55,738 nt of DNA from Desulfobaccales bacterium (lineage in GTDB: Bacteria > Desulfobacterota > Desulfobaccia > Desulfobaccales > 0-14-0-80-60-11). Location of the stretch: contig JBGSLA010000009.1 of the NCBI GenBank assembly GCA_041740935.1, positions 1 through 55,738 on the forward strand, read 5' to 3'. Of this stretch, positions 17,730-40,679 are shown piece by piece; within the stretch, counting starts at the first letter, position 1; every line of letters starts with the position of its first letter. Both the position numbers and the translations under genes were made by a program. A model generated the notes under the pieces. The model saw only the letters and a list, made by a program, of their open reading frames with translations, ran no database searches and was not told the DNA's origin.

Positions 17730-18371
17730 ATGCATCTTCAAGTGTGCGAAACCTTTACCAGTATTTTGGGAGAAGGCACCCTGGCGGGTCTGCCGGCCTT
17801 TTTTGTTCGGCTGACGGGCTGCAACCTGCGCTGCCGCTACTGCGACACCGTCTATGCCTATGAAGGGGGCGAGGTCAGGTCGGTGGAGTCTCTGGTCGCT
17901 GAGGCCCGGCGGGCCGCGGTTGGGCGGGCGCTGGTCACCGGGGGTGAGCCCCTGCTTCAGGAAGGTGCGGCGGCTCTCATGGATGACCTGATCCAGGCGG
18001 GGCTGGAGGTGCTCCTCGAGACCAACGGTTCATTGCCGATTCAGGGGGTGGATTCCCGGGTTCGGCGCAGTGTGGATCTGAAATGTCCGGGAAGCGGCAT
18101 GAGCGGCCACAATTATTGGGCCAATCTGGACATCCTGACTCCCCGGGACGAGGTCAAGTTTGTGGTCGGTGATCAGGACGATTTTGTCTGGGCGATGGAG
18201 GTGGTCAGGCGCCGGGGGCTGACCGACCGCCTGCCGGTGCTCATTTCTCCGGCCTTCGGGGTGGCCTCCCCGGCGGAGGTGGCCGCCTGGATCATCGGGA
18301 GCGGACTGCCCCTGCGCCTCAACCTGCAGCTGCACAAATACATCTGGGGTCCGGAGGTCCGGGGCGTATGA
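17730..18371 (+). CDS. queE: 7-carboxy-7-deazaguanine synthase (radical SAM)
   Basis: FVRLTGCNLRCRYCDT cluster motif; 213 aa; adjacent to queC. Confidence 0.88.
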   Translation: MHLQVCETFTSILGEGTLAGLPAFFVRLTGCNLRCRYCDTVYAYEGGEVRSVESLVAEARRAAVGRALVTGGEPLLQEGAAALMDDLIQAGLEVLLETNGSLPIQGVDSRVRRSVDLKCPGSGMSGHNYWANLDILTPRDEVKFVVGDQDDFVWAMEVVRRRGLTDRLPVLISPAFGVASPAEVAAWIIGSGLPLRLNLQLHKYIWGPEVRGV

Positions 18372-19054
18372 CCGCCAAACCTTTGGCCGTGATCCTGGCC
18401 AGCGGCGGCCCGGACAGTTGCGTGGCCGCGGCGCTGGCCCGGCGGGAATATGACCTGGCTTTCTGCCACGCCAATTACGGCCAGCGCACCGTGGCCCGGG
18501 AGCTCAAGGCCTTTCGGGAGCAAGCCGTCTTTTTCGGGGTGGACCTGACCCTGGAGGCGGACCTGTCTTTTTTAGGGCAGATCGGGGGCTCCAGCCTCAC
18601 GGACACCCACCTGGGCGTGCCCACCCCCGCCGGGGAAGGCCCCGGCATCCCCTCCACCTATGTGCCCTTCCGCAATTCCCTGCTGTTGGCCGTGGCGGTG
18701 GCCTGGGCCGAGGTGCTGGGCGCGGCGGCCGTGTTCCTGGGGGCCAACATCCTGGACAACCCCGGCTATCCGGACTGCCGCCCGGCGTATTTCGAGGCCT
18801 TCAACCGGGTCATCGCCCTCGGCACCCGGCCGGAAACCCATATCGACATCAAGACTCCGATCATTCACCTGGACAAGGCCGGCATCGTGCGTCTGGGCCT
18901 CGAGCTGGGGGTCCCGTTCGAGCTCACCTGGTCATGCTACGTCAACGATGATCAGGCCTGCGGGCGCTGTTCTTCCTGCGTCCTGCGCCTCAAAGGCTTT
19001 GCCGCGGCCGGGGCCGTGGATCCCATCCCCTATCGGACGGGCACACCCGACTGA
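18368..19054 (+). CDS. queC: 7-cyano-7-deazaguanine synthase
   Basis: AVILASGGPDSCV PP-loop and C-terminal Cys cluster CGRCSSCVLR. Its start overlaps the queE stop. Confidence 0.9.
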   Translation: MTAKPLAVILASGGPDSCVAAALARREYDLAFCHANYGQRTVARELKAFREQAVFFGVDLTLEADLSFLGQIGGSSLTDTHLGVPTPAGEGPGIPSTYVPFRNSLLLAVAVAWAEVLGAAAVFLGANILDNPGYPDCRPAYFEAFNRVIALGTRPETHIDIKTPIIHLDKAGIVRLGLELGVPFELTWSCYVNDDQACGRCSSCVLRLKGFAAAGAVDPIPYRTGTPD

Positions 19055-19153
19055 TCAGGGCCCAGGGGGCGGGTCAGGGCACAGGCGACCCCGGGGGGTG
19101 TCCGGGGCGCGGCTTCGGGGCGGCGATGAGACTGGATCGGCAGAGGGAAAGGC

Positions 19154-19582
19154 CTAGTTCTTCTCCCGGGTGCGGGGCTGACGCTTCACGGAAGGTTTGG
19201 CCGCCTGGCTGCGGCGCACCAGGGCCAGAATCTCCCATTCGGCAAAGGGGGCCAACAGGCAGGCATAGATTCCCAGATCCATGGCCTCCTTGACCAGGTC
19301 CCGATGTTCCCGGTGATTTTTATGACAAAGCAGGACCAGGCGGCAGCCGGGACAGGCCACCTTGATCTTGGCGTAAAGGCCCGGGCCGTAGGTGCTCACC
19401 GTCTGACAATCAACAAATACCGTGGCCTTTTCGTGCCCTTTGAGGGTTTGCACGATCTCGCCGGGATGCCCGACAACATGGGGAGCATACTTATGGGTTT
19501 CCAGGAATTTCGCCAGGAAATCCCGGGTCGGGCCGTCGGCCACCAAAAGCACCAGAGCAGGATATGAAAAAGGACGTGGCAT
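19154..19582 (-). CDS. CheY-like receiver-domain protein, probably degenerate
   Basis: VLLVADG...VFVDC...LLCH... has the beta-alpha periodicity of a receiver. ATG 19582 has GAGG 4 nt upstream; the longest ORF starts at 19636. Confidence 0.45.
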   Translation of the reverse strand: MPRPFSYPALVLLVADGPTRDFLAKFLETHKYAPHVVGHPGEIVQTLKGHEKATVFVDCQTVSTYGPGLYAKIKVACPGCRLVLLCHKNHREHRDLVKEAMDLGIYACLLAPFAEWEILALVRRSQAAKPSVKRQPRTREKN

Positions 19583-19687
19583 TCTGCCTCGTATCGCTTG
19601 TGGGCAATGATCGCCCCCCAAAAAGGCGGAGGCCATCGCACCAGGAGATCAGACAGGTCAGGGCTGTCTGACCATGCCGGGGGAGAG

Positions 19688-19718
19688 AAAAAAAACCCCA
19701 CGCCGGCATGACGTGGGG
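19688..19718 (-). terminator. rho-independent terminator (minus strand)
   Basis: Minus strand reads ccccacg-tcatgccgg-cgtgggg followed by T8. Confidence 0.6.
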
Positions 19719-19990
19719 CCTTCTAAGAAAATGCCGTGCTCCTGGAAATGCCTGAAGATTTTCCCCAGGAAAGGTGCAAAGACTGAGCCAACTAAATGTG
19801 TGAGGAAATGGACAACATACCACTTCCCGGCAGCGGCAATTTGTCTTAAATTCGACCTTAATGGGTTGTCACATATATAATAACCAGTTTTGGTTATTGT
19901 CTGATTATCGACCCATTGTGTCTATATCGGACAAATTTTCCGTCAAAAAACCGGAAGGCCAGAAAAGAAGTACAAAAAAGCAGACAATCC

Positions 19991-21322
19991 TTATGAGCCT
20001 GCTTCAGAATCCTTGCTCTGGGTAAGCTTTTCCAACTCCGTTTTGAGGTGGCTGGAGAATTCCTGCCGGAAGATATCGATATCCATGGCCTCATCATATC
20101 TTCCCAGAAGGTACAGGGCCATGCCTTTGTAGACCTTGGCTTCCTGGATGAAAGGGGCGATTTTGATGGCCTGGTCAAAGTATTCCAGGCTTTCCTCATA
20201 CCTGGCGGCGCCGAGCAAGGCGTTGCCCTTGGCGGTCAGGGCGTAGGGGTCCTGGGGCTGCCGGGCCAGAATTTCATCCAGCGTGCCGATGGCCTCCTCG
20301 CTTCTCCCCAAGTCAGTGAGACACATGGCTTTGACCTGCAGGGCCCGGATATTCTCGGGTTTGCCGGCCAAGGCCTTGTTGCAACAATACACCGCTTCTT
20401 CCAGGAGGCCCTGCCTGGCCATACCCTCGGCCCCGGAGATCCAGGGAATCTGGTTTTCCACCTTCAGGATTTGCATCATCAGGCTTTCATAGGTCAGCTC
20501 AATGAGCTGTTTGCCGTGGTCCACCACGGGGACCCCATGGCCGGGTAGGATATGCTGGATATCCCTTTTCATCAAGGCCTTTAGGGAGAAGAGATAATGG
20601 TCCAGGCGTCCCCCGGCCTTGTCGTCGGCTTCGGCCATGCCGTTGGGCAGCACGGTGTCGCCGGTGAAGGCCGTTTTGGTGGGGGCATGATAAAAGGTCA
20701 GGCCGTCGATGGTGTGGCCGGGGGTGTAGAGCACTTCCAGGGGGATGCCGCACAGATCGATGGTTTCCCCGCCCTCGAGCTCGGTGACCTTACAGTCGAA
20801 TTTTTTCACCACATTCTTGAGTTCTTCCGGGCTGTCTTTGTGGAGGATGAGCTCAAAGCCGCCGTTTTCGACGATATGGGGATAGCCCCGCAACAATTCG
20901 AAGGCTCCGGAGCACTGGTCCCGGTGACCGTGGGTCAGGACGATCTTTTTGATGTCTTCCGGCTGGCAGTATCCCTGACTGAACAGGTCCATAAAACCCG
21001 TGTAATCGTTGCCCGGATCCACGAGGCTGACGTAATCCTCTCCCTTGATGGCATAAATATTGCCGGAGTATTCATAGGCCAACAGGAAAAGTATTTTTTC
21101 AAAGAAGGGGTCCGAGGAGTTGAAAACCTTGGCCACGGTCACCCAGCCGGGGTGTTGGGGCTCCTCTTCCTGGGGGGCTTCTTGTTCAGGGAGCCCCTCC
21201 AGCTCTTCTTGCGGGTCGCGGACATCTTCGTCGTGCTTGTCTTGGCTCATATGTTCAGAAAATCCTTTCAGAGGCATTATGTTCGAAAATTTAATACTAT
21301 TCACTTCAGCGCCGGTTTTCAA
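19991..21322 (-). CDS. MBL-fold metallo-hydrolase fused to C-terminal TPR repeats
   Basis: THGHRDQCSG (HxHxD-type) and YTPGHT. The C-terminal ~170 aa has TPR periodicity (AxxxxxKAL...P.N..A). Start is uncertain: TTG 21322, ATG 21277 or ATG 21250. Confidence 0.75.
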   Translation of the reverse strand: MKTGAEVNSIKFSNIMPLKGFSEHMSQDKHDEDVRDPQEELEGLPEQEAPQEEEPQHPGWVTVAKVFNSSDPFFEKILFLLAYEYSGNIYAIKGEDYVSLVDPGNDYTGFMDLFSQGYCQPEDIKKIVLTHGHRDQCSGAFELLRGYPHIVENGGFELILHKDSPEELKNVVKKFDCKVTELEGGETIDLCGIPLEVLYTPGHTIDGLTFYHAPTKTAFTGDTVLPNGMAEADDKAGGRLDHYLFSLKALMKRDIQHILPGHGVPVVDHGKQLIELTYESLMMQILKVENQIPWISGAEGMARQGLLEEAVYCCNKALAGKPENIRALQVKAMCLTDLGRSEEAIGTLDEILARQPQDPYALTAKGNALLGAARYEESLEYFDQAIKIAPFIQEAKVYKGMALYLLGRYDEAMDIDIFRQEFSSHLKTELEKLTQSKDSEAGS

Positions 21323-21463
21323 GGCTTTTCGCGCCCAGCCTCAGTCAGACTGTAAGTCAACCCCCCATTCGCCCGCGCCGGAAAGCACGTGCCTGTCTTG
21401 CGGCTCCAGGGCAGGGTGTGGTAAAAAAGATTGAGAAAAAATCAAGCCTTTGCGACCTCTTCC

Positions 21464-21880
21464 ATGAATTGCCCCAAGTGTCTCGTCAGCCTGGATTTAG
21501 AGCGCCACGGCGACCTGGTCTTCGACGGTGAGGTCTGGTGCGAATGCTGCCGCAGCTATGATGAGCGCCTGCTTATGCTGCTGCCGTTTGCGGAGCTGGA
21601 GGCCTGGAATCAGCGCATCTGCGAGGCCTTGGGCCGGGACGCCGTCAGTCTTTCGCGCGACCCGGATTACCTCCCCGATCCCCGCAAATATTGGAACGGG
21701 ACCACCTTCCTGCTGGCCGAGGCCTGCCACCGGGAACGCAGCATCATGCTCCACCCCCCGGGCCACAGCCTGAAGACCCTGTGCCACGAACTGGCCCACA
21801 TCTTCACGGGCCAGGACCACAGCGAAACCTGGGCCCGCACCTTTGCCCGGCTCACCGCCTGGGTCACGGCCCACCTTTAA
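21464..21880 (+). CDS. small zinc-ribbon protein with HExxH metallopeptidase-like motif
   Basis: MNCPKC...CECC ribbon at the N-terminus; LCHELAHIF near the C-terminus. ATG 21464 chosen over TTG 21431. Confidence 0.5.
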   Translation: MNCPKCLVSLDLERHGDLVFDGEVWCECCRSYDERLLMLLPFAELEAWNQRICEALGRDAVSLSRDPDYLPDPRKYWNGTTFLLAEACHRERSIMLHPPGHSLKTLCHELAHIFTGQDHSETWARTFARLTAWVTAHL

Positions 21881-21920
21881 TGCCGTTTTCGGTTCCCAGT
21901 TTTCGGTTTTCGGTAAAAAA
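21880..21920. repeat. ccgaaaac-type short repeat (inverted relative of 17690-17717)
   Basis: atgccgttttcggttcccagttttcggttttcggtaaaaaaa. Confidence 0.55.
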
Positions 21921-22067
21921 ATAACAAAAATATCCCCCTCCCCAGACGCCTGGCCAAGAGAGGGGGATGATCTGCACTTATCGAGGCCCCTCACGGAGAC
22001 AACCCCGATAGTCTTCCCCCGGACCGGGGGGCCTGGCCTCCCGGCCCAAGGGGGGGCAGGTCAAGGG

Positions 22068-22493
22068 TTACGGCGCGATGAAGTCCAGGCAGTACCCCAG
22101 TTTCATCTTGTCCATGGGCCACATCTTGGTGCTCTCTTTTTCACCGGCCGGCCATACCGGCTGGTCATTGATCTTTTCGATGAGCACTTCGATGAAATGG
22201 AACTCCGTCAGCTGATGCTTGGCAATATCCTCACCGGGCAGCAATACGGCCAGCCCCGACTCCTTGGAGAACTTCCAATGGAAGGCCTCGTTGGGCTCAC
22301 TGGTCATCTGGCCGGTCTTGCCGGCGTAAATCTTGAGGAGTTTGCCGGAAATGTGATCATTCGGTTTGACATTGAATTCTTCATATAACTCATCGGGGAT
22401 ATGCCACCACAAACCTCTGAACCCGGTTTTGATGTATCCCTTGACGAGCATGGGGTCAAATCCGCAAACACCAACGCGAGCTCTTGCTGGCAT
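22068..22493 (-). CDS. hypothetical protein, last gene of the CoA-transferase-like operon
   Basis: 141 aa from ATG 22493, with AAGGAG 8 nt upstream (longest ORF starts at 22538). Coding-like codon usage; no recognisable family. Confidence 0.6.
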   Translation of the reverse strand: MPARARVGVCGFDPMLVKGYIKTGFRGLWWHIPDELYEEFNVKPNDHISGKLLKIYAGKTGQMTSEPNEAFHWKFSKESGLAVLLPGEDIAKHQLTEFHFIEVLIEKINDQPVWPAGEKESTKMWPMDKMKLGYCLDFIAP

Positions 22494-22593
22494 GCGTACT
22501 CTCCTTTTTCCTGAATTGGTTCTCGGGTTGTTTTCCACCTGAGCCTACCCGGGGCCGTAGTAGCGGGCCTGGGACCCAGGTGGAGAAACAACG

Positions 22594-22926
22594 TTATCTT
22601 TGCAACACCCTGCGGGTGTTTTCCACAATTTTCTGAAAAAGCCCCTGCTGGTCAGGGGGATTCTCCAAATTGTGGATCTGCTGTCGTAAATCATCCACCT
22701 GATTGTAGCAATGCTCCAAAAACACTTCCGCCTCTTCGGCCGTAATGTAGCTGCACTGAAACAACCGGCGAACATAGGGAGAGACATAGGTGGTGATCTC
22801 TTCCTGAAACTCTTCCACCAGGAATTCGTTGTTGCCGTCACTGGTGGCAAACGATATATAGTTTGCCTTCCAATTGACCAGCATGGCTTCCATGGCGTCG
22901 AGTTCCTTGCGGACATTCTCTTTCAT
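22594..22926 (-). CDS. hypothetical acidic helical protein
   Basis: 110 aa. The start lies 1 nt after the upstream stop. Predicted all-helical, Glu-rich; no family recognised. Confidence 0.55.
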   Translation of the reverse strand: MKENVRKELDAMEAMLVNWKANYISFATSDGNNEFLVEEFQEEITTYVSPYVRRLFQCSYITAEEAEVFLEHCYNQVDDLRQQIHNLENPPDQQGLFQKIVENTRRVLQR

Positions 22927-22927
22927 G

Positions 22928-23164
22928 TTAGGTCTTCTGCTTAAAGGCGTAGCACTTTTTGACCACGTTGAAGTCGGCCACGCACCAGTAATGGGGCCAG
23001 TGAATCTTCATGCACCAGCCGATGATGTCCGCCGGGGGGAATTTGGAGCCTTTGATCACCGGTTTCAGGTAATCGCACTGCCAGCAGATATGGTCGGATT
23101 CTTTCTCCGGCTCCAGAACTTTATCCAGAAATTGCCTCGGGGTTAACCCTTTTGCTTCAATCAT
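22928..23164 (-). CDS. hypothetical small Cys/Trp-rich protein
   Basis: 78 aa from ATG 23164, with AAGGAG 7 nt upstream. Cys positions HICWQC...WC...WC...KC. Confidence 0.55.
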   Translation of the reverse strand: MIEAKGLTPRQFLDKVLEPEKESDHICWQCDYLKPVIKGSKFPPADIIGWCMKIHWPHYWCVADFNVVKKCYAFKQKT

Positions 23165-23198
23165 GTGCCACTCCTTTTCTCTAAGCACCGGGGTCCGG

Positions 23199-23687
23199 TT
23201 ACCAGTCCGTTACTTCGCCCTTGGCGATCTTTTCCTGAAACTCCGTCCAGACATCCGGAGACAGATTCTTCAGATCCCAGTTGTAAGGATACTGGCCGGC
23301 GATGCCACCACAAGGCGGCTGGGGCCGCCAGCCCCGCAAGGGCCGGCCCCGGATGCTGAACTTCACCATGTCGGGCACACCCAGATAGATATGCCGCGGC
23401 AAGCACTCGAAGGGCCGGGTTTTGCCCGGAGTGCCCATGGGGAAGTTGATATAGCCCTCCAAGGGCTTGTCGGCGTACAGCGGCATGGTATCCGGCTTGG
23501 TTCCCGCCGGCTGCTCATCCGGACCCGTATACATGTGCCCCTGGATCATGTGAATGGCGTAAACCGTGCCGCAGTTGGCGCAGTTGACCGTACCCTTCCA
23601 GTTCCAGAAGCAGTAGGGATCCAGGTAGTTCACCGTGTTGCAGGGCTTGCCCTCTACGTCTTTTTTGCACCAAATGATATCACACAC
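23199..23687 (-). CDS. hypothetical Cys/Trp-rich protein (possible zinc ribbon)
   Basis: 162 aa. GTG start with AAGGAGGAG upstream. MCDIIWCKKDVEGKPC...YC...NCANCG. Confidence 0.6.
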   Translation of the reverse strand: MCDIIWCKKDVEGKPCNTVNYLDPYCFWNWKGTVNCANCGTVYAIHMIQGHMYTGPDEQPAGTKPDTMPLYADKPLEGYINFPMGTPGKTRPFECLPRHIYLGVPDMVKFSIRGRPLRGWRPQPPCGGIAGQYPYNWDLKNLSPDVWTEFQEKIAKGEVTDW

Positions 23688-23702
23688 AGTGCTCTCCTCC
23701 TT

Positions 23703-25145
23703 TTAGATCCAGGCCTTGTCGTACCATTCTTTGACCGTAGAAATGGGGTAGCCCAGCAGCTCGTGGTAGAACTTGACGTTGTCCGCGCCCACCGGCCGCC
23801 AGATCCAGTAGAGGCGTCTCGGGGTCTTGGACAACATCCCAGCGCTGTAGGTACCCTGGACCAGAACATCCCCGAACAGGGGGTCTTCCATCCAGCGGAC
23901 GGTGCCGCGCTGCCGGTAGTGGTCGTTCTCATAGACCTCACGGTCATTCATCACCGGCTCGCACAGGAGCCCGGCGCTTTGCAGGACCCGGACCACTTCG
24001 GTGCGGCTCTTGTCTTTGGCCCAGTCTTCCAGTTGGGCGTAGATATCCACCTGGGCTTCGCCCTCCACCCGGTCCTTGTGCTTCATGTACTTGCTGTACA
24101 TGTCGGGCTTCTTGATGACGTCGCACAGGGCTTTGAAGTCCGCATCCTGGAACGCCGAAACCATGACATAGCGGGCTTCCAGGCGGTCCTGCGGGTTGAT
24201 GGCGTCCGGGTAGGCGGACTTGCCGGCGAGGATGATGCCGTGGACGCAGAGCTGGGTGTCCCAGTTGCCCCAGCGCTGGCGCACGATGCCGAAACGGCCG
24301 TACATGGGCACGGTGTGGCCCAGGCAGCGGGTGGCCGCCTGCACCTGGGAGAACTCGATCATGGTGCCGAGCCCCGTCTTACGCCGCCAGTGCAGCGCCG
24401 CCAGAATGCCGAAGGTGATCTGGGTGCCGGAATACCAGTCAATGCACCAGTTGGAGTGTTTGGTGCTGTGGCCGCCCATGAATTCGTGATGGCCGGTGAC
24501 CGAGGACAAGCCGGCGTGGGCCTGCCCCAGGATGTCGTAGGAGCCGCCGAAGCACTTGGGGCCGTAGCCGAAGCCGCCGCCCCAGACATAGATGAACCGG
24601 GGATTGAGCTCCGCCACGTAGCGATAGCTCTGCTTCCAGCGGTCGAAGGTGCCGGGCCGGTAGCACTCGGTGAGGCCGTCGGACATCTTGATGATGCGAT
24701 AGAAGGCCTCTTTCATTTCGTCCAGGTGGTAGTCGATGCTGACGTAGTACTCATTGGGGTTGGCGTTCATGAAGCCGTACCCGGTGCCGGTCATGGGCCG
24801 GGTGTCGTGCAGGGGATAGAGATAGGCCTCGTTGAAGGGCGAAGTGTGCTTCATGGGGTCGCCCATGCGGGGCATCTCGAACTTATAGACCTCGGCCCCC
24901 AGTTCCGCCAGGTTGGCGACTGAGTGGGGGGTGAAGATGTACATGGTGGTGCTCATCCAGCGGATGCCCTTCAAGGCCTCGGGTTTGCCCATCTCATGGC
25001 CCGGAGCAAAGACCGCCCGGCAATACTCCTCATAAGGCATCTTCATCTCATTGAGTTCTTCCCTGCTCTTGGGGCCCTTCTGCTCCTCCAGGGGAGCCTC
25101 GATGAGGTGTTTGTATTGCTTTCTCCATTCCTTCTTGTCGTTCAT
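23703..25145 (-). CDS. family III (CaiB/BaiF-type) CoA-transferase-like protein, 480 aa
   Basis: PEALKGIRW...[22 protein letters not shown]-terminal signature and GFGYGP...[17 protein letters not shown] Asp-containing motif. The ATG overlaps the upstream stop (TAATG). Confidence 0.75.
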
Positions 25146-26635
25146 TATATAACCCCCTTCTCCTTGAGCTCATTGACCTTGGTCTGGCCGACGCCGCACC
25201 ACTTCTGCATGATCTCATAGGTATCAAACCCCAGGGGCCGGCCCAGCACTTTGACCCGGTGCGGGGTGCGCATCTGGTAGGCGTTGGGCGAAACCGCAAA
25301 CAAAACCGTGCCGTAATGGTCGGTATCAATGGTGCATATCCAGGGACGATAGACGAAATGGGGGAACTCGCACACCTCGTCGATGAACAGAATCGGCCCG
25401 GCGGCGATTTCGTATTCCATCAACTTCTGTTCCGCCTCGATGCGGTTGATGTCTCTCAGCCAGCGGGTGGTCAGGGTGTAGGTCTTGATCAACATGGCCA
25501 GGGCGTTTCTGGCCCCCATCTCTTTCAAGATGGGATCTTCGTGGATCAGACGGCCGAATTGCGGGAAGTCCCGCTCAATGCACATACCGATGCGGTACCA
25601 CAGACGGTCGGTCTGGCCGCCGATCATCATGTAGCCGTCCCGGCAGGGGTTCCACTCATACTGGTTGAGGTTGGGGTCCCAGGCGCCGGTGCGGGCTTTG
25701 ATGGAGGCGTTGAAGCCGTACCAGGAAATGTCGAAGTCCAGAATGTCCATCTGGGCCTCAGCGCCGGTCACTTCGCAGAACTGGCCTTCGCCGCTGAACT
25801 CATCCCGCCAGTACAGGGCCGCCAGCAGGGTGTTGGCCGCCTGTTCGCCGGCCGCAAAGTCGGCGAACCAGACACCGGAGCGGCAGGGGTCGCCGCCCTT
25901 GCCCCGGGGGCACTGGTCCTGGGGAAAGCCGGTGTTGTGCACAAAGGAGTTGGCGCAGCCGCCGAAGGGCTCCAGGGTCCACTGGCCGTACTTGGAGATT
26001 TTGTCCTTGAAAGGACCCCAGGTGCCCCGCACCGCCATGTTGCAATACACCAGGCGGGGGAACATCTTGGCCAGTTGCCGGTAGCCCAGACCCAGGCTGT
26101 CCATGTAGCCCGGGGGCATTTCATCGATGATACCGTCCACCTGACCGACCAGGGTCTTGTAGATGGTCCGGCCTTCATCGGTCTCCAGGTTCAGGGTGAC
26201 GGATTTCTGACCCCGCATCTCATGCATGAAGTCCATGCCGCATTTTTCCCCGGTGATCTCCGAGGTGAACATGTACTCTTCGCGGCCGAAGGGGGTCAGC
26301 TGGCGCAGGGGATCGCCCTCGGGGGGTTCAATATTGATCACCTCGGCCCCGGCTTCGCACAGCAGCCCGGCGCAGAACTTATTGCCCAGCCTCCACAGGC
26401 CGACGCACAAAAACTTGAAACCCTGGAGGGCTTCCGGCTTGCCGAAGGAGTACTCGTACCTGAGGTTGTCTTCGCACCATTTGCCGAAGTCCTCCGCCTT
26501 GCGTTTGGCGTAGGTGTTCGCCATAACCCAGTCGGGAGTAGGCGGCGGCGTTACCGGCCAGGGCCTGATCTTTTCCGACATCAACTCCATGGTGTCGGCC
26601 CGACTGTTAATTTCAATGTCTCTTTTTTCTGCCAT
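25145..26635 (-). CDS. divergent family III CoA-transferase-like protein, 496 aa
   Basis: PEALQGFKF...[25 protein letters not shown] 26635 has GGGAGG 7 nt upstream; the longest ORF starts at 26650. Confidence 0.7.
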
Positions 26636-26760
26636 GTTTCGGCCTCCCATTGAGTAAGCTGTTCCTCAACTTTCGCATCGCGAGGCTAGCTTTTGCCCTC
26701 GCGATCTCGCCAAAGAAAATACTGCACTACAAACAAGGCCTTATGGAAACGGCAGGGAGG

Positions 26761-26775
26761 GCGACCCCCGTGCCG
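26761..26775 (-). promoter_or_regulatory. candidate sigma-54 promoter (-24/-12) for the CoA-transferase-like operon
   Basis: Minus strand cGGCACGggggTcGC versus TGGCACG-N4-TTGC: GG and GC have correct spacing. It lies about 125 nt upstream of ATG 26635 and downstream of a sigma-54 activator gene. Confidence 0.45.
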
Positions 26776-27128
26776 GTAAAGCCGCCGATCTGTTGCCTCG
26801 GGGCGACGGCTCCCCTGGTGCTCCTTCACCTCCTTTCCATGGGATCAAACAATTGGGTTGTTTTTTTTCCGTACAGCTTCTGCTTTCGGTTTCTCCGCCC
26901 AGGCCCCACCCAGGACAGAGAAAAACACCCAAAACTCTATACAAAATCCCTGCCAACCCGGACAGGGGCGTGCAGCCAAAGGTATCTTACTGATTTCCCA
27001 ATTGATTTTATGCTGTGCGTCGGCCTTTCCGTTTGCAACCTTGTGATAAAAAGTTCTTGTTGTGTCTCGATATTAAACAGTAATTTAATTTTTGTGTCTT
27101 TCTTATTAAATTTCCTCAATAAATTATT

Positions 27129-27165
27129 GTACGAAATGTGACCCTAATTCCAGGTCATTTCGTAC
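27129..27165 (-). terminator. hairpin overlapping the stop codon of the activator gene
   Basis: gtacgaaatg(tg)acc ... ggtcatttcgtac. On the minus strand it is followed by aataatttatt, which is only moderately U-rich. Confidence 0.35.
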
Positions 27166-29509
27166 GATGCAAACCGTAACGGCGAATTTTGCTGTACAGG
27201 GTGCTGCGGCTTACCCTAAGACGCCGGGCCGCCTCGTGTTTGTTCCAGCCCACTTCCTTGAGCACCCTGAGGATCAGGAGGCGCTCGGTTTCGGCCAGGG
27301 AGGTGGGCAGGGCCTCTTCGCCGGTTTCTTTGAGGAAGCGGGGCAGATGCCGCCGGCGGATGTCCTCCCCCTGGGCCAGGATCACCGCGTGACTGACCGC
27401 GTTTTCCACTTGTCGTACATTGCCCGGCCAGTCAAAATCCATCAGGGTTTGCATGGCGTCCGTGGAGAACCGCAGGATGCGCTTGCCCTCTTTCAGATTG
27501 TATTTATCCAGGAAATGCTGACAGAGCAGCGGGATGTCCTCTTTGCGCTCCTGGAGGGACGGCAGGTTGACGGTGATGACATTCAGGCGATAGTAAAGAT
27601 CGTCCCGAAAACGACTCTCCTGCACCTCCCGGTAGAGGTCCTTGTTGGTGGCGGCCAACACCCGGACGTCCGACTCAATGGTGGCCTCCCCCCCCACCCG
27701 TTCAAAGCAGTGGTCCTGGAGGAAGCGTAACAGCAGAATCTGGGTGGCCGGGGGAATGTCGCCGATTTCGTCTAAAAACAGGGTGCCCCCCTGGGCCAAC
27801 TCGAACCGGCCTTTCTTGCGGCGGATGGCCCCGGTGAAGGCCCCCTTTTCATGACCGAACAGTTCGCTCTCCAACAGGGTCGGCGAATAGGCGGAGCAGT
27901 TGGCCACCACAAAGGGCCCCCGGCTGCGCTTGCTCTGGCGGTGAATGGAGCGGGCCACCAATTCCTTCCCGGTGCCGTTTTCCCCCATGATCAGCACGGT
28001 GGCGTCGGTGCGGGAGACCAGGTCGATGAGCTCGTATACCTCCTGCATCCTTTTGCTCTGCCCGATGATGTCCCCGAATTGGGTCTTGGCCGGGATGGGG
28101 GTGGGGCTCAAGGAAACCGTGGTCTCCTGGCGCATCAGATAGCGGAGATAAAAGGCCACCTGACCGAAAAAGGCCTGAAAAAAATTGAGCTCCTCCCGGG
28201 AATACCCCTGGGGCGTTTGGGAACCCAAGAGAAAAAAGCCCAGGCAAACTTGCTGGGTAAACAGGGGCAGCCCTAACCAGCTCGGATAAATCCGGGAGAT
28301 GACCTTGAAACAAGCCGGCATGGTCCCCCGGTCGGCATAGGTCACCGGGTGAGGCTCTTTTAGGTTGCCGATGTAGGTGACCAATTCACCCAGGAGCCCC
28401 ACTTTCTCCAGCCTGCGAAACAGGCGTTTCAGGGGCTCGGTGACCCGGTCGGAGCACTCGTCCAAAGGGAACAGGCGGGTTTTCTCGGGGTCCATCAGCA
28501 GAAACAGGAAATCGGACTGGGCAAACAGTTCGCCCAAAGTATCGTTCAAATATTGCACCAACTCGGGGATCGAATGCCGGGAATAGCGCTCCCGGGCGAT
28601 CTCGCAGAGCTTTGCCAACTGGGCCTGGGTTTTCTGCAGTTCCTGGGAACGGAAGGCCAGGGATTCTTCCATGCGCCGCCGGTCGGTGACGTCCCGCTCC
28701 AGGCAAATGACCAGATCGATCTCGCCCTGGCTGTCAAAATGGGGATACGCGGCAATCTGAAAGACGTAATCTTTGCTCTGGGAGGAGAAGCCCATGTCGG
28801 TCAACACCGGACGCTTGAGTCTGACGGCTTCCTGCACCGGGCACAGGTAGCCCTCTTCCTGGCACGGGGTCTCTTTGCTCCGCAGGACTTCGAAACAGCG
28901 CCGTTCCAGCACCGCTTCGGGCTTGCGGCCGATCCGGTTCAGAAAAGAGTCATTGGCCATGACCACGCGGCAGGTGGCGGGGTCGATGACCAGAAGATCA
29001 TCGGTGATGCTGTTGAAGACCGTATCCCGAAAATCTCTGGCAACCTTCAGTTCGGTTTCCAGTTCTTTCAGACGGGTGATGTCGGTGATGGCCCCCAGAT
29101 AACCCAACGCGGTGCCGTTTACCTGGAGGGGCGCCAGCGCCAGCCGTCCCACCCAGGAGCCCCCGTGCTCACCGTGAAAGTTCAGTTCGCAGGACTCCGG
29201 TCTCTCCTGGCCGTGGTGTGCAAGATACGTCTGGAACTCGGACAGTTCGGCGTCCCCCAAAAAATCCGCCAAAGACCGGCCCAGCAATTCCCCGGGATCG
29301 ATGCCCAACCTGGCGGTCAGCCAGGCATTGCTGAAAATGATCTGCGCCTGGGCATCCAACAGCACGATGCCCTCGGGGGCCAGGTCGATAATGGTGCGAA
29401 AGCAATCCAGAGAAACGCAGGATAATTCCCGGGGCAATGAAGCCAGAGGCACTTCCGGAGAGTCCGGGTGGGGCAGAAGGTGTATATCCTGGTGCCGGTC
29501 TGGGGACAT
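27155..29509 (-). CDS. sigma-54-dependent transcriptional activator with PAS-PAS-GAF sensory region
   Basis: AAA+ core GENGTGKELVARSIH, ESELFGHEKGAFTGA (GAFTGA), and C-terminal Fis-type HTH RVSRSTLYSKIRRYGL. The N-terminal ~450 aa has PAS-like and GAF-like segments. Confidence 0.9.
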   Translation of the reverse strand: MSPDRHQDIHLLPHPDSPEVPLASLPRELSCVSLDCFRTIIDLAPEGIVLLDAQAQIIFSNAWLTARLGIDPGELLGRSLADFLGDAELSEFQTYLAHHGQERPESCELNFHGEHGGSWVGRLALAPLQVNGTALGYLGAITDITRLKELETELKVARDFRDTVFNSITDDLLVIDPATCRVVMANDSFLNRIGRKPEAVLERRCFEVLRSKETPCQEEGYLCPVQEAVRLKRPVLTDMGFSSQSKDYVFQIAAYPHFDSQGEIDLVICLERDVTDRRRMEESLAFRSQELQKTQAQLAKLCEIARERYSRHSIPELVQYLNDTLGELFAQSDFLFLLMDPEKTRLFPLDECSDRVTEPLKRLFRRLEKVGLLGELVTYIGNLKEPHPVTYADRGTMPACFKVISRIYPSWLGLPLFTQQVCLGFFLLGSQTPQGYSREELNFFQAFFGQVAFYLRYLMRQETTVSLSPTPIPAKTQFGDIIGQSKRMQEVYELIDLVSRTDATVLIMGENGTGKELVARSIHRQSKRSRGPFVVANCSAYSPTLLESELFGHEKGAFTGAIRRKKGRFELAQGGTLFLDEIGDIPPATQILLLRFLQDHCFERVGGEATIESDVRVLAATNKDLYREVQESRFRDDLYYRLNVITVNLPSLQERKEDIPLLCQHFLDKYNLKEGKRILRFSTDAMQTLMDFDWPGNVRQVENAVSHAVILAQGEDIRRRHLPRFLKETGEEALPTSLAETERLLILRVLKEVGWNKHEAARRLRVSRSTLYSKIRRYGLHRTK

Positions 29510-29867
29510 CTTGCTCCTTTTCGGGTTAGGAGGGTGGAGGCCAGCTTGGTTTAGATATAGATACTACCAGGGTTTGAAGGAATGTCTGGTTTCTGCCTGC
29601 GTTGTCGTGAGGATTGCATCATAGGAGATGAAACGTTCAGAGTCAAGGGAAAATCACGCGGTGATGAATTTTTAGGGTCGGATTCTGGACAATGGGTATT
29701 TGGCCTGGCCAAAAGCTAACTGGATTCATGAGGTTGGCTGGGAACGATTCCTGGACAGAAATTTTTCCTCCCGGACCGGGCCGGGCCTCGGATGACCCGG
29801 GAAAAATTAGGGAGGCGCGGGAGAAAAGAAGTTGCCCAGAGGCTGCGTCGGCGCCGCCGGGGGGTTC

Positions 29868-29896
29868 TTGACAAGATAAACCGCCTAGATTATGGT
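29868..29896 (+). promoter_or_regulatory. candidate sigma-70 promoter of the export/methylation cluster
   Basis: TTGACA (29868-29873), 17-nt spacer, TATGGT (29891-29896). Confidence 0.45.
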
Positions 29897-29999
29897 AAAA
29901 AGCTTAGACAAACCCCGGTTTAAGCCCGGCGCCGCCCCGCCTGTCGCAGGAAGCGCCCGGGCCCAGACCAGAGAACCTTCAAACCGGTTTGACTTCATT

Positions 30000-30824
30000 A
30001 TGGGTCCCGACAGCCACCGCGCCAGTATTCCTGGTTTAGTCCGACTTTACTTACGGCACCGCCACCTGACCTGGGAGATGATCAAGCGTGATGTCATGGA
30101 CCGCTACGCCGGGCAGATGTTCGGGCCCTTCTGGACCATCGGCCATCCCCTGTTCCTGATGGTGATTTATGTGGTGGTCTTTACTTTTATTTTCTCCTTA
30201 AAGACTGACGGCTCCTATGACTTTCCCCTGGATTACCCCACCTATATTATAAGCGGCCTGATCCCCTGGATGGCCTTCCAGGAATCCATGACCAGGGGGA
30301 CCACCGCCATTTTGGCCAACGCCGACCTGGTGAAACAGGTGGTGTTTCCCCTGGAGATCCTGCCGGTTAAAACCATATTTTCCTCTTTGATCACCCAGGG
30401 CGTGGCCACCCTGTTTCTTATGGGTTACGTGTTGATCAAATATCACTATCTGCCCTGGACCTACAGTTTGCTGCCGATCCTGTGGTTTTTTCAATTCCTG
30501 GCCATGGCCGGCGTCGGGTTTTTTTTGGCCTCGGTGGGGGCCTATTTCCGGGATCTGAAAGATATCGTGCAGGTGTTCAGCATCGCCTGCCTGTATCTGA
30601 TTCCGGTGTTATTTCTGCCCATTTGGGTGCCCCGCTGGCTGCACCCGGTTTTTTACGCCAATCCCTTTAGTTATATGGTGTGGTGCTACCAGGATGCCTG
30701 TTACTTCGGCCGCTTTGCCCATCCCTGGGCCTGGCCGGTGTTCATTATTCTCAGCCTGGTAACGTTTGTGCTGGGCTATCGCACTTTTTATAAATTAAAG
30801 GTTATGTTCGGCAATGTCCTCTAA
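30000..30824 (+). CDS. wzm: ABC-2 type polysaccharide/polyol-phosphate export permease
   Basis: Six-TM ABC-2 profile (RDVMDRYAGQMFGPFWTIGHPLFLM...). ATG 30000 is preferred because ATG 29892 lies inside the putative -10 box. Confidence 0.8.
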   Translation: MGPDSHRASIPGLVRLYLRHRHLTWEMIKRDVMDRYAGQMFGPFWTIGHPLFLMVIYVVVFTFIFSLKTDGSYDFPLDYPTYIISGLIPWMAFQESMTRGTTAILANADLVKQVVFPLEILPVKTIFSSLITQGVATLFLMGYVLIKYHYLPWTYSLLPILWFFQFLAMAGVGFFLASVGAYFRDLKDIVQVFSIACLYLIPVLFLPIWVPRWLHPVFYANPFSYMVWCYQDACYFGRFAHPWAWPVFIILSLVTFVLGYRTFYKLKVMFGNVL

Positions 30825-31062
30825 TTATCGAAACAGATGGCGGCCAGGCCGATCCTCCGGGGGCCGCTCTCAGGCCCCGGGGGAACTTCGGAGTTCATAG
30901 AGAATTATTAAAATTCTCCCAGCTCCGTTCAGAATTGATATACTTTGGCTGGAGTGAACACCTGGTCTCCAAAATGAACGGCAAACACCTCAGTTACAGG
31001 GCCTGGTATCTTATCCTTAAAAAGACCAAGTCAATATAATTAAGTTTGGTTCACCTGGAGAG

Positions 31063-32025
31063 ATGGGGTCTATGGCTTTCCTGCAACGCGTGCTGGAAAT
31101 ATTTTTGTTTTCAAAACCCGACCACGAGCAACCTGCCGACCTCCCCCTGGCCCAGGCGCAGGTTCTGGAGGATTCCCCGGAAGACAAGGAGCCGGTGCAA
31201 CCGGCCAATTTGCGACCCCTGGACGCCGGCCCGGAGGCCCTGCAGCGGGATGTGGACTATGCTCTGGGGGGCGGGCGGATGTATCTGGCTATCCTGGCCG
31301 GGGAATTCCTCAAGGACAAAACGGTCCTGGAGATCGGCCCGGGGACCAACTTCGGCTTCCCTCTGATCATGGCCTGTCACGGGGCCAAGGTCATGGTGGC
31401 GGATAGATTTCTCACTCCCTGGGATGACAATTACCACCCCAAATTTTACAGCCAATTGCGGGATAGCCTCAAAAAGCACTGGGCCCTGATCGACACCACC
31501 CCCCTGGATCGGATCCTCTCAGTGAGCGACTATGCTCCCGAAAGCATCACGCTTTATTCCTCTGCCCTGGAGGAGCTTTCCGTAGTCCCGGACCAGAGCG
31601 TGGATGTGGTGATTTCCAATGCGGTTCTGGAACACGTCTACGATCTGCCCACAGCCTTTGCCCATCTGGCCCGGGTCACCAAACCCGGCGGCCTGGGCTT
31701 CCACCAGGTGGATTTTCGGGACCATCGGGATTTCTCCCGGCCCCTGGAGTTCCTCCTGTTTGAAGATCAGGAGTTTCGGGAGGAGTTCGATTACCGCCAG
31801 GGAGAATGCGGCAACCGCTGCCGGCCCCTGGAGATGCGGCAATTATTTGAGCAGGCCGGCTTTGACGTGAACATCTTTCATCCCAATATGTTTGCCGAAG
31901 AGGAGTATTTCGCCGAATTTCTGGAGCGCCTGCGCCAGGCCCCCGACTCCTGCTATTGTCAGTATCCTGCCGAAGATCTCTGCTTCATTTCAGGTCTGTT
32001 CGCGGTGGCCAGGAGGCCGGAGTAA
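31063..32025 (+). CDS. class I SAM-dependent methyltransferase (paralogue of 46140-47084)
   Basis: VLEIGPGTNFGFPLIMACHGAKVMVADRF (motif I), VDVVISNAVLEHVYD, TKPGGLGFHQVDFRDH. Confidence 0.8.
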   Translation: MGSMAFLQRVLEIFLFSKPDHEQPADLPLAQAQVLEDSPEDKEPVQPANLRPLDAGPEALQRDVDYALGGGRMYLAILAGEFLKDKTVLEIGPGTNFGFPLIMACHGAKVMVADRFLTPWDDNYHPKFYSQLRDSLKKHWALIDTTPLDRILSVSDYAPESITLYSSALEELSVVPDQSVDVVISNAVLEHVYDLPTAFAHLARVTKPGGLGFHQVDFRDHRDFSRPLEFLLFEDQEFREEFDYRQGECGNRCRPLEMRQLFEQAGFDVNIFHPNMFAEEEYFAEFLERLRQAPDSCYCQYPAEDLCFISGLFAVARRPE

Positions 32026-32076
32026 AAAATCATTTGCCAGGAACTCCTTAACAAAATTGGGGCCGGAATTTGTAAT

Positions 32077-33021
32077 GTGGAATTGACTGTGATAAATCCT
32101 CATTTCGATGAAAATATCGTTGTGTGGCAAGATGTCTATTCGGGTAAATATCAGCCGGTTAATTATGATATTCAATTTGATGATGAGTGGAAATTTTTCT
32201 TAGAGAAGAAGATCGGTTTTTTTAAACATACTGGTGTAGAAATTGATGATAAATGGATTAATGACCGGATATCCGAGTTAACCGGCATGAAACATTATAT
32301 AGAAACAAAAAAATATGGGCAGTTTTTGGGTAGATATATTTTTAATTTAAAGCAATATTTTGGCGACAGCGAACAAAGACGTAATATCGGCGGACGTTTG
32401 TTATTAGAGCCGAAATTTCCATTTGACCACTTTCAGGGGAAAAGGAGTTTGGATATCGGCTGTGGCGCCGGACGCTGGACCAAAACCTTGATGCTTCTGG
32501 GGGCCAAGGTAAAATCAGTAGACGTCTCGGAACATGCTCTGATCTCTACGAAACGCATAAATAATGATGTTGAATATTTAAATCTTTTTGACATAATTAA
32601 GAGCCGGCCTGATCTTCATGAGTCTTTCGATTTTACCATGTGCTGGGGGGTGGTTCAGCATACCCATGACCCCAAACTGGCTTTTGAAAATGTCGCCAAA
32701 ACCTTAGCCTCTCATGGAGAGCTCTATACGATGATTTATGCCCCCGGCCAACACGATTCAGAAACAATTATGAATCAACGAAAACACTTTCATAAAAATT
32801 TAACAACTATCGAAGACAAGCTGCAGTATGCCTACGACATATCGGATTGCCCGGAAAATTGTATTAATCAATTTGATATGTTAAATACATTTTATAATTG
32901 GGTGGTTCCTGAAGAAGTGATTTATAAGTGGTATCGGCAAAACGGGTTTGAGAATATTATTACACTGAACGCACATCAAAAAGAAAAAAGTGCGTTTCAT
33001 CTTGTCGGGAAAAAATTATAG
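32077..33021 (+). CDS. class I SAM-dependent methyltransferase (AT-rich gene)
   Basis: SLDIGCGAGRWTKTLMLLGAKVKSVDVSEHAL; FDFTMCWGVVQHTHDP. GTG start is uncertain. Confidence 0.75.
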   Translation: MELTVINPHFDENIVVWQDVYSGKYQPVNYDIQFDDEWKFFLEKKIGFFKHTGVEIDDKWINDRISELTGMKHYIETKKYGQFLGRYIFNLKQYFGDSEQRRNIGGRLLLEPKFPFDHFQGKRSLDIGCGAGRWTKTLMLLGAKVKSVDVSEHALISTKRINNDVEYLNLFDIIKSRPDLHESFDFTMCWGVVQHTHDPKLAFENVAKTLASHGELYTMIYAPGQHDSETIMNQRKHFHKNLTTIEDKLQYAYDISDCPENCINQFDMLNTFYNWVVPEEVIYKWYRQNGFENIITLNAHQKEKSAFHLVGKKL

Positions 33022-40636: not shown

Positions 40637-40679
40637 ACTACTTGAAATATCAATGAAACAATTTTAGGTCGTTTATAAT

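Follow-up and report, generated by a model that had tools for sequence, protein, structure and literature searches.

In the family III coenzyme A (CoA) transferases Frc and YfdW, the active-site aspartate forms an acyl-aspartyl anhydride. The CaiC/CaiB (carnitine) and FldABC systems link a family III transferase to an AMP-forming ligase and to proteins acting on thioesters, and in FldABC, the phenyllactate dehydratase, the transferase FldA is stably incorporated into a larger complex. The 4-chlorobenzoate pathway combines a ligase, an enzyme transforming the CoA ester and a thioesterase of the 4HBT type. Pairs of family III genes are also known, namely those of BbsEF (succinyl-CoA:(R)-benzylsuccinate CoA-transferase, PDB 9fn0) and the type III pair of the ORM2a 'Magic' benzene cluster, which also has FAD/Fe-S oxidoreductases, MaoC dehydratases and a ligase (PMC13101534). 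Here we analyze a locus in which two paralogous genes of this family, A and B, stand together with four small genes, C to F, on a stretch of 55,738 nucleotides (nt) from a Desulfobaccales bacterium (assembly GCA_041740935.1, contig JBGSLA010000009.1, positions 1 to 55,738), the whole of which is called the window hereafter. The results of our analysis indicate that this block is a genuine multi-gene unit, which is widespread and lacks annotation, and to which four orphan protein families are attached. We put at about an even chance the further proposal, based on sequence and gene context, that the product of the locus is a heteromeric enzyme not described before, which has a family III CoA-transferase heterodimer as its basis and handles a carboxylic acid in the form of its CoA thioester.

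The original prediction, made from the sequence of the window alone, had placed seven co-directional genes on the minus strand at 22068-29509, consisting of a sigma-54 activator followed by A to F, and all seven open reading frames (ORFs) are present at these coordinates. Family alignments back the starts of A, B, C, D, E and F, giving proteins of 496, 480, 162, 78, 110 and 141 amino acids, in agreement with the lengths first assigned to all six products. A and B overlap by 1 nt, a gap of 15 nt separates B from C, and D and E are 1 nt apart. Searches of the literature by enzyme family, organism names and gene combinations found no description of the A-F block, and no described pathway that matches it was found, as had been anticipated. 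The features of the block are as follows.

25145..26635, minus strand: subunit A, family III CoA-transferase paralogue of 496 amino acids (PF02515); its ORF extends to 26650, with a conserved ATG at 26635.
23703..25145, minus strand: subunit B, family III CoA-transferase paralogue of 480 amino acids (PF02515), the probable catalytic subunit.
24438..24440, minus strand: codon of Asp236 of B, the presumed acyl-anhydride nucleophile (from the YfdW alignment and its invariance).
23199..23687, minus strand: subunit C, orphan protein of 162 amino acids with an N-terminal Cys4 zinc-ribbon-like module formed by C7, C16, C36 and C39 (family alignment).
22928..23164, minus strand: subunit D, orphan protein of 78 amino acids, Cys-rich and rubredoxin-like (family alignment).
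22594..22926, minus strand: protein E, weakly conserved orphan of 110 amino acids (family alignment).
22068..22493, minus strand: protein F, orphan of 141 amino acids from a conserved ATG, resembling a swapped-hairpin beta-barrel (AlphaFold2 and Foldseek).

A and B, which share 25% identity, match the CoA_transf_3 family (PF02515) with 193.9 and 210.4 bits, respectively, against a Pfam cutoff of 23.3. The 366 positions of the model span residues 75-466 of A and 58-449 of B, and it is the N-terminal extensions of 74 and 57 amino acids, together with internal insertions, that make both proteins longer than usual members of the family, as first noted. Neither reaches the NCBIfam equivalog cutoff of a named family III enzyme (413-750 bits for the models of Frc, YfdE, CaiB, succinyl-CoA:mesaconate, succinate-glutarate and Mct transferases); the top scores are 107 bits for A and 130 bits for B against the cutoff of 700 bits for succinyl-CoA:mesaconate transferase. 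The solved structures closest in sequence are found at E values of about 1e-21 to 1e-24. Alignment with YfdW bears out that the canonical V-L-D-x-T strand is replaced, since B reads 'IRWMSTT' opposite 'IKVLDFT' of YfdW and A reads 'FKFLCVG' at the same place, and the 12-residue N-terminal strand-loop of B differs where YfdW reads KVLDFTGVQSGP. The canonical strand-loop (V-L-D-x-S/T ... G-P), which we take to line the CoA site in Frc/YfdW, is thus absent from both B and A.

Asp236 of B aligns with the aspartate of YfdW within 'aalgDsntg', presumably the catalytic Asp169, and is invariant in 82/82 sequences. Asp264 of A (in the numbering of the 501-residue ORF) is kept in the window copy and is replaced by Ser in five related loci forming one subclade, and its own site therefore appears to be dispensable in at least one lineage, so that B is read as the probable catalytic subunit. 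The term 'aberrant', which the original prediction applied to these transferases, overstates the case, because B retains the catalytic Asp in every sequence examined. B also contains long invariant stretches and an invariant inserted loop, 'PFNExYLYPLHD', without counterpart in YfdW. Wherever both were recovered, A and B are separate genes, and a fused double CaiB-domain protein of the DddD type was not encountered.

For the small proteins C, D, E and F, single-sequence searches of Pfam and NCBIfam were without result, and neither PDB sequence searches nor profiles built from their homologues and run against PDB sequences gave a match; for F, Pfam scans of each family member were also without result. 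Their original description as proteins without a family is borne out in these searches, and they are the products of genes, not of chance ORFs. In C the residues Cys7, Cys16, Cys36, Cys39, Cys95 and a C-terminal Trp are invariant, as is the tail 'GEVxDW', and a profile search among 1.84 billion representative proteins recovered only 53 representatives related to it; its AlphaFold2 model has a mean predicted local distance difference test score (pLDDT) of 87.8. D is conserved as strongly as B (60-94% identity), with invariant H25, C27, C30, C51 and C71, and 9/24 of its members give weak matches to the rubredoxin domain PknG_rubred when scanned individually. Both C and D are probably small metal-binding subunits of the Cys4 kind. 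E has a mean column identity of 41%. The family of F has an invariant N-terminal R-x3-C-G-x-D-P motif (R6, C10, G11, D13, P14), and its AlphaFold2 model (pLDDT 82) finds its best Foldseek match in PhS018 (2glw), with a probability of 0.99, an E value of 0.054, a template modelling (TM) score of 0.59 on the target and 15% identity.

B has hundreds of close relatives with 70-93% identity across phyla, which are annotated at most as 'CoA transferase' or 'CaiB-like', and the small genes beside them carry the annotation 'hypothetical protein'. That such identity is maintained across domains of life indicates strong functional constraint. In a survey scanning one genome per species, at least 253 species representatives carry a relative. 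The record titles of the carriers include Desulfobacca, Syntrophobacterales, Desulfobacterales, Desulfacinum, Desulfosoma and Thermodesulfatator, as well as Aquificota, Chloroflexota, Terriglobales and Methylomirabilis, to which Archaeoglobus, Thermosulfidibacter and Desulfovirgula are to be added. The related loci come from Thermodesulfobacteriota, Aquificota, Chloroflexota, Acidobacteriota and a contig resembling Firmicutes, besides Archaeoglobus, and the B of the window is closest to that of Desulfobacca metagenome-assembled genomes (MAGs), with 93% identity. The occurrence of the other genes in these loci (hereafter clade 1) is given below as present/eligible, eligible loci being those related loci whose flanking sequence is long enough.

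A: 69/69.
C: 76/76.
D: 74/74.
E: 69/74.
F: 70/70.
Metallo-beta-lactamase (MBL) fold protein with tetratricopeptide repeats (MBL-TPR): 51/64.
Receiver-domain protein: 34/55.
Sigma-54 activator: 38/59.

The conservation of the small ORFs beside the two large genes in other genomes, the lack of which was to have counted against the original prediction, is found across phyla. Gene order and strand are constant with one exception, Archaeoglobus, where E, F and the MBL gene lie jointly in the opposite orientation. In a Thermosulfidibacteraceae genome, A to F and the MBL-TPR gene lie among ribosomal and other housekeeping genes, a placement which indicates that the block can move as a module.

A scan of metagenome contigs queried with distant C-like proteins revealed a sister clade of the system (loci L092-L171, for instance L159, 2234-12249), in which A', B' and C' follow each other in the same order in 76/80 loci. 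Identity to the respective counterparts A, B and C amounts to 42-45% for A', 45-49% for B' and 30-40% for C'; the PF02515 scores of A' and B' are 268 and 240 bits, both Asp residues are kept, and A' retains a canonical 'IRVLDMT' strand. The genes that accompany this core are the following (present/eligible loci).

D', 56-62 amino acids, Cys-rich: 55/73.
X, orphan protein of about 124-146 amino acids encoded downstream of D': 64/65.
AMP-forming ligase: 40/42.
4HBT hotdog thioesterase: 22/30.
U32 protein: 20/23.

D' shares the motif CxxC...GxCxK[IL]xWP with D (hhalign E value 0.0025) and is probably its counterpart. E, F, the MBL-TPR protein and the activator were not detected in the sister clade, and X, which was considered as a possible homologue of E or F, is not homologous to either. 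Because the sister clade retains C and D while E and F are missing from it, the ancestral core would consist of A, B, C and D. Two gene fusions involve this core: C and D form one ORF of 243 amino acids in a Chloroflexota MAG (L047, 11416-12144, equivalent to L091, 11443-12174), and D' is fused to the following X in locus L105. These fusions argue for physical association, and together with the constant synteny they render a passenger role for the small ORFs improbable. Upstream of the sister-clade core, a helical orphan protein of about 470 amino acids is encoded in 35/38 loci. The sister-clade loci also have a DUF4177 protein, and in 17-20 of them genes judged by eye to be NuoA- and NuoB-like follow.

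An orthologous AMP-forming acyl-CoA ligase adjoins the block in 11/85 clade-1 loci as well, with 46-67% identity across Archaeoglobus, Thermodesulfatator, Chloroflexota, the Firmicutes-like contig and Desulfobacterales; it is generic and falls below all NCBIfam cutoffs. A U32 protein resembling UbiU and TrhP is encoded in 6/11 of these ligase loci and near the block in seven clade-1 loci overall. U32 proteins are relatives of O2-independent hydroxylases. The activator lies beside the block in none of the 11 ligase loci, and the ligase in none of the 38 activator loci. The transporters adjacent to the block vary with the lineage and comprise a major facilitator superfamily (MFS) protein, a Liv-type ATP-binding cassette (ABC) transporter, a DUF485 plus SSF pair and an NMT1-family substrate-binding protein with DctM-family membrane genes, all of which we take to be of carboxylate-uptake types. 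In L047/L091, the locus with fused C and D, the DUF485 and SSF (ActP-like) pair lies directly upstream of A together with a LytS/LytTR two-component system. No homologue of the ligase or the U32 protein is present in the window. The original prediction that CoA ligase and transporter genes are missing is thus right for the window and does not extend to the system (ligase in 11/85 loci of clade 1 and 40/42 of the sister clade, transporters in several lineages); their absence is a property of the layout of this genome. Recurrent around the A-B-C-D core are a ligase, a U32 protein and a thioesterase with one or the other of the two folds. Acyl-CoA dehydrogenase, hydratase, hydroxyacyl-CoA dehydrogenase and thiolase genes are found neither in the Pfam-annotated contexts of nine lineages nor among the window ORFs annotated by Pfam (18368-32025).

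The conserved unit runs past 22068 to 19154, taking in the genes of the MBL-TPR and receiver proteins, and the block is in this respect not the self-contained operon of six genes that was first proposed. Three further genes are located between F and this boundary.

19991..21322, minus strand: glyoxalase-II-like MBL-fold domain with C-terminal TPR repeats, start codon uncertain (Lactamase_B and TPR families).
19154..19636, minus strand: stand-alone receiver-domain protein (Response_reg), ORF of 160 amino acids with a conserved part of about 135.
21431..21880, plus strand: HExxH protein of 149 amino acids between F and the MBL gene, of doubtful membership.

The MBL-TPR gene has a homologue directly after F in 51/64 loci. 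Its nearest PDB sequences are LACTB2 and hydroxyacylglutathione hydrolases, its match to TIGR03413 (gloB) is weak (42 bits for a cutoff of 200.8), and the consensus of its family keeps the metal-ligand motifs THxHxDH, PGHT, GD and PGHG. Its TPR domain might conceivably dock the invariant 'GEVxDW' tail of C. The receiver ORF matches Response_reg below the cutoff (E value 3e-4), and its Desulfacinum homologue gives a clear match. The HExxH protein, which contains paired CxxC motifs and CHELAH, has no Pfam match, and a homologue lies near the block in only 12/83 loci, at varying positions. On the other side, beyond the activator (29892-33021), an ABC-2 membrane protein and a methyltransferase are encoded, and the GC content of the window falls to 0.49 at 32-34 kb and 0.43 at 40-42 kb compared with about 0.58 elsewhere; this suggests that 29892-33021 and 40001-42000 belong to a region of surface-polysaccharide genes, possibly acquired horizontally.

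The regulatory features of the locus that are found in the window are listed here.

27155..29509, minus strand: sigma-54 enhancer-binding activator of 784 amino acids with two PAS domains, a GAF-like domain, an AAA+ domain with GAFTGA and a Fis-type helix-turn-helix (HTH).
26940..26955, minus strand: sigma-54-type promoter-like element TGGCAGGGATTTTGTA, 305 nt before the start of the A ORF, with GG at -24 and TG at -12, and GT instead of GC.
26826..26837, minus strand: invariant 12-nt leader block GAAAGGAGGTGA, perfectly Shine-Dalgarno-like, 185 nt before the start of the A ORF.
19776..19790, minus strand: second sigma-54-type promoter-like element TGGCTCAGTCTTTGC, about 140 nt before the receiver gene.

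The Pfam domains of the activator (PAS_8/PAS, PAS_4/PAS_9, a weak GAF_2, Sigma54_activat with an E value of 1e-69, AAA_lid_14 and HTH_8) agree with the architecture first read from its sequence, weakly so for GAF; GAFTGA is present in the translation, and the protein stays below every NCBIfam equivalog cutoff. With its AAA+ GAFTGA core, HTH_8 and the -24/-12 promoter pattern, the system has the features of NtrC-family sigma-54 enhancer-binding control, on pattern evidence. A homologue of the activator lies directly upstream of A in 38/59 loci. When 11 leaders are aligned, the element TGGCAGGGATTTTGTA stands out as an invariant block. The conserved element upstream of A has the form TGGCA-N6-TTGT/C, and the one before the receiver gene reads TGGC-N7-TTGC. 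Sites matching TGGC-N7-TTG[CT] precede A in 18/66 loci and the receiver homologue in 17/36 loci; the background is 0.07 per kb per strand, from which about 0.7 would be expected in the receiver set. Judged from these motifs, both the A-F operon and the receiver gene seem to depend on sigma-54, as would agree with control by the neighboring activator, and the conserved promoter-like element upstream of A supports the sigma-54 control that had been predicted for the operon.

Between the promoter-like element and A, the block GAAAGGAGGTGA is invariant in the leader alignment with no start codon after it, and in most loci the small ORF that might follow such a Shine-Dalgarno-like block lacks a start codon there. 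The sequence AAGGAGGTG is located 80-340 nt upstream of A in 45/67 loci from several orders, often with a CCTCC-containing stretch about 20 nt downstream which could pair with the leader block. An Rfam scan of the window and leader gave no match and single-sequence folds of the leader no consistent structure; the block may be a new cis-regulatory leader element. In an Acidobacteriota-like MAG (L089, 5362-8323), A is preceded by a PAS-sigma-54 activator of 462 amino acids, an orphan protein of 138 amino acids and an IclR-type regulator, an arrangement which indicates that the regulatory input differs between lineages while the enzyme genes are constant. Beyond the activator of six Desulfobacterales loci (among L025-L029, L033 and L046), 5-9 kb upstream of B, a CooS-like (CO dehydrogenase-type) protein of 680 amino acids, as judged by eye, is encoded with a NifX-like small protein and a GNAT-like protein, which is probably lineage synteny.

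The core is of the Frc type and has kept its Asp, and the genes that repeatedly surround it are those of a ligase, a thioesterase and carboxylate transporters. Most simply, this would mean that the enzyme handles a carboxylic acid in the form of its CoA thioester. B would be the catalytic subunit, with the invariant Asp as nucleophile, and A, its diverged paralogue, would complete an interlocked dimer with it. C, with its Cys4 zinc ribbon in a new fold, and D, with its rubredoxin-like Cys4 site, would be obligate small subunits of the ancestral core, whereas E and the swapped-hairpin barrel F would be clade-specific accessory proteins. The acid could be loaded either by B, which would transfer CoA from a donor or product thioester, or by the dedicated AMP-forming ligase encoded beside the block in other genomes, which would prime it; the CaiB/CaiC and Fld systems offer precedents for this loading. 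The thioester would then be held, and possibly transformed, on the A-B-C-D core, and CoA or product would be freed by a thioesterase, putatively the MBL-TPR protein here and the 4HBT hotdog protein in the sister clade. In this genome, the PAS/GAF sigma-54 activator would turn on the A-F operon and, separately, the receiver gene. The sequences themselves show the family membership, the conserved Asp, the synteny, the gene fusions and the promoter motifs; complex formation, metal binding, thioesterase activity and the direction of flow are what we infer in this scheme.

Several observations weigh against this CoA-thioester scheme. A transferase and a thioesterase are partly redundant with each other, which the scheme leaves unexplained, and pure CoA transfer does not explain why U32 proteins are near-constant in the sister clade. 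Several positions that contact CoA or the acyl group in Frc/YfdW are replaced, among them the V-L-D-x-T strand and the 'Q-x-G-P' loop after it, which reads 'MYIFTP' in B, and normal CoA binding is therefore not assured. The model of C has no Foldseek match in the PDB (best E value 1.7), and the case for a complex, drawn from synteny and two fusions, suggests rather than demonstrates association. Finally, the MBL copy of the window reads THGHRDQ where 49/49 homologues have HxHx[DE]H, with one metal-ligand His changed to Gln; either the second metal site has truly been lost in this copy, or the change stems from an error in sequencing or assembly.

In the manner of the 4-chlorobenzoate pathway, the core might instead transform an acyl-CoA made by the ligase, for example through isomerization, epimerization, an intramolecular CoA shift or lyase- or carboxylase-type chemistry at the Cys4 metal sites, the thioesterase then releasing the acid, and we regard this as a serious possibility though on the unlikely side. 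The ligase and thioesterase that almost always flank the sister-clade core, and the ligase that recurs in clade 1, would fit such a sequence of reactions, as would the remodelled active-site loops of B, its many invariant His, Trp and Tyr residues and inserted 'PFNExYLYPLHD' loop, and an identity of 70-93% across domains that is unusually strict for a plain transferase. Family III proteins that are not transferases in the ordinary sense are moreover on record, including alpha-methylacyl-CoA racemase, the intramolecular transferases Mct and ThnP, and DddD (PMC9813914, PMC11659651). Yet catalytic residues or a cofactor for a second reaction cannot be named, the invariant Asp is equally required by a transferase, C and D are perhaps merely structural zinc proteins, and no ligase is adjacent to the block in the window and 37 other loci. 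The possibly new chemistry of the original prediction finds no direct support in the present observations. We would only tentatively advance, and consider unlikely, that A-B-C-D represents a new class of multi-subunit metalloenzymes, in which the CoA-transferase heterodimer serves as the platform for new O2-free chemistry on a CoA-bound acid, with the metal at the Cys4 sites of C and D and in concert with U32 hydroxylases, in two deep clades of bacteria and archaea.

It is quite improbable, in our judgment, that A and B form an ordinary two-subunit transferase of the BbsEF or phthalate type with the rest of the pathway encoded elsewhere, the small ORFs being assembly factors, regulators or passengers. 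Paired family III genes do exist in BbsEF (PDB 9fn0) and the ORM2a pair (PMC13101534), and the AbrB-like swapped-hairpin fold of F is often DNA-binding, but C, D and F are found in 100% of eligible loci, in fixed order and across phyla, and C and D are retained in the sister clade, which has other genes in place of E and F. The C-D and D'-X fusions, the conservation of D at the level of B (60-94% identity) and the lack of beta-oxidation genes beside the block in any lineage examined point in the same direction. Least probable of all, to the extent that we give it little credence, is that the system belongs to an anaerobic route that makes or modifies, for example, a quinone or an aromatic cofactor. 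An aromatic acid activated with CoA would then be the substrate of an O2-independent hydroxylase of the U32 type, A-B-C-D serving as carrier or transferase. This would account for the UbiU/TrhP-like U32 proteins near the block in 20/23 sister-clade and seven clade-1 loci, and the set of ligase and hotdog thioesterase is reminiscent of MenE/MenI logic. However, sigma-54 PAS/GAF control and adjacent uptake transporters fit inducible catabolism better, most clade-1 loci have no U32 gene nearby, and no other quinone-pathway genes were seen. Other candidates that we considered, namely a complex resembling acetone or phenylphosphate carboxylase, a DMSP lyase of the DddD type and a CoA-dependent glyoxalase system, found no supporting evidence.

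Whichever of these readings applies, the carriers of the block include sulfate reducers, syntrophs, thermophiles and Archaeoglobus, and its sister clade is common in metagenomes from soil, groundwater and sediment. Defining the block would give a function to at least four orphan families, one of them without structural relative, and could reveal a missing step in anaerobic carbon metabolism. The system is testable now in cultured carriers (Desulfacinum infernum, D. hydrothermale and Desulfovirgula thermocuniculi), and the PAS/GAF sensor of the activator offers a handle for finding the inducer.

Returning to the heteromeric CoA-transferase that we favor and to the systems described at the outset, its likeness to Frc/YfdW and the single-gene family III enzymes lies in the fold family and the aligned Asp, and these are the nearest solved structures (E value about 1e-21). 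Identity to A and B is nevertheless only about 20-25%; Frc/YfdW are homodimers, whereas two different subunits are present here, and they lack the N-terminal extensions of 55-75 amino acids, the insertions and the replaced strand and following loop of A and B, which are furthermore always accompanied by orphan small proteins. F differs from its best structural match, the single-chain swapped-hairpin beta-barrel PhS018 of Pyrococcus horikoshii (2glw), in that the latter lacks the R-x3-C-G-x-D-P motif. BbsEF is similar in having two adjacent paralogous family III genes, in occurring in anaerobes and in presumably forming a heteromer, with E values of 1e-16 to 1e-20 for BbsEF and the ORM2a pair; both of these sit among genes of the beta-oxidation type (dehydrogenases, MaoC hydratases and FAD/Fe-S oxidoreductases), unlike A and B, and are without C, D, E, F and the MBL-TPR protein. 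The locus therefore shares with BbsEF the side-by-side paralogous subunits but not the accompanying beta-oxidation genes, and the ORM2a benzene-activation cluster was rejected as a match because its pair has other partners and none of C to F (PMC13101534).

The CaiC/CaiB and FldABC systems have partners, CaiD/CaiA or 2-hydroxyacyl-CoA dehydratases, that are unrelated to those found here; the present block is without an ATP-dependent activator and, unlike these systems, has a thioesterase in its set. The likeness to the 4-chlorobenzoate pathway resides in the AMP-forming ligase and 4HBT thioesterase which flank the sister-clade core, the putative MBL-fold thioesterase taking the place of the latter in clade 1. 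The central enzyme of the 4-chlorobenzoate pathway, however, belongs to the crotonase family, whereas the one encoded here is a family III CoA-transferase.

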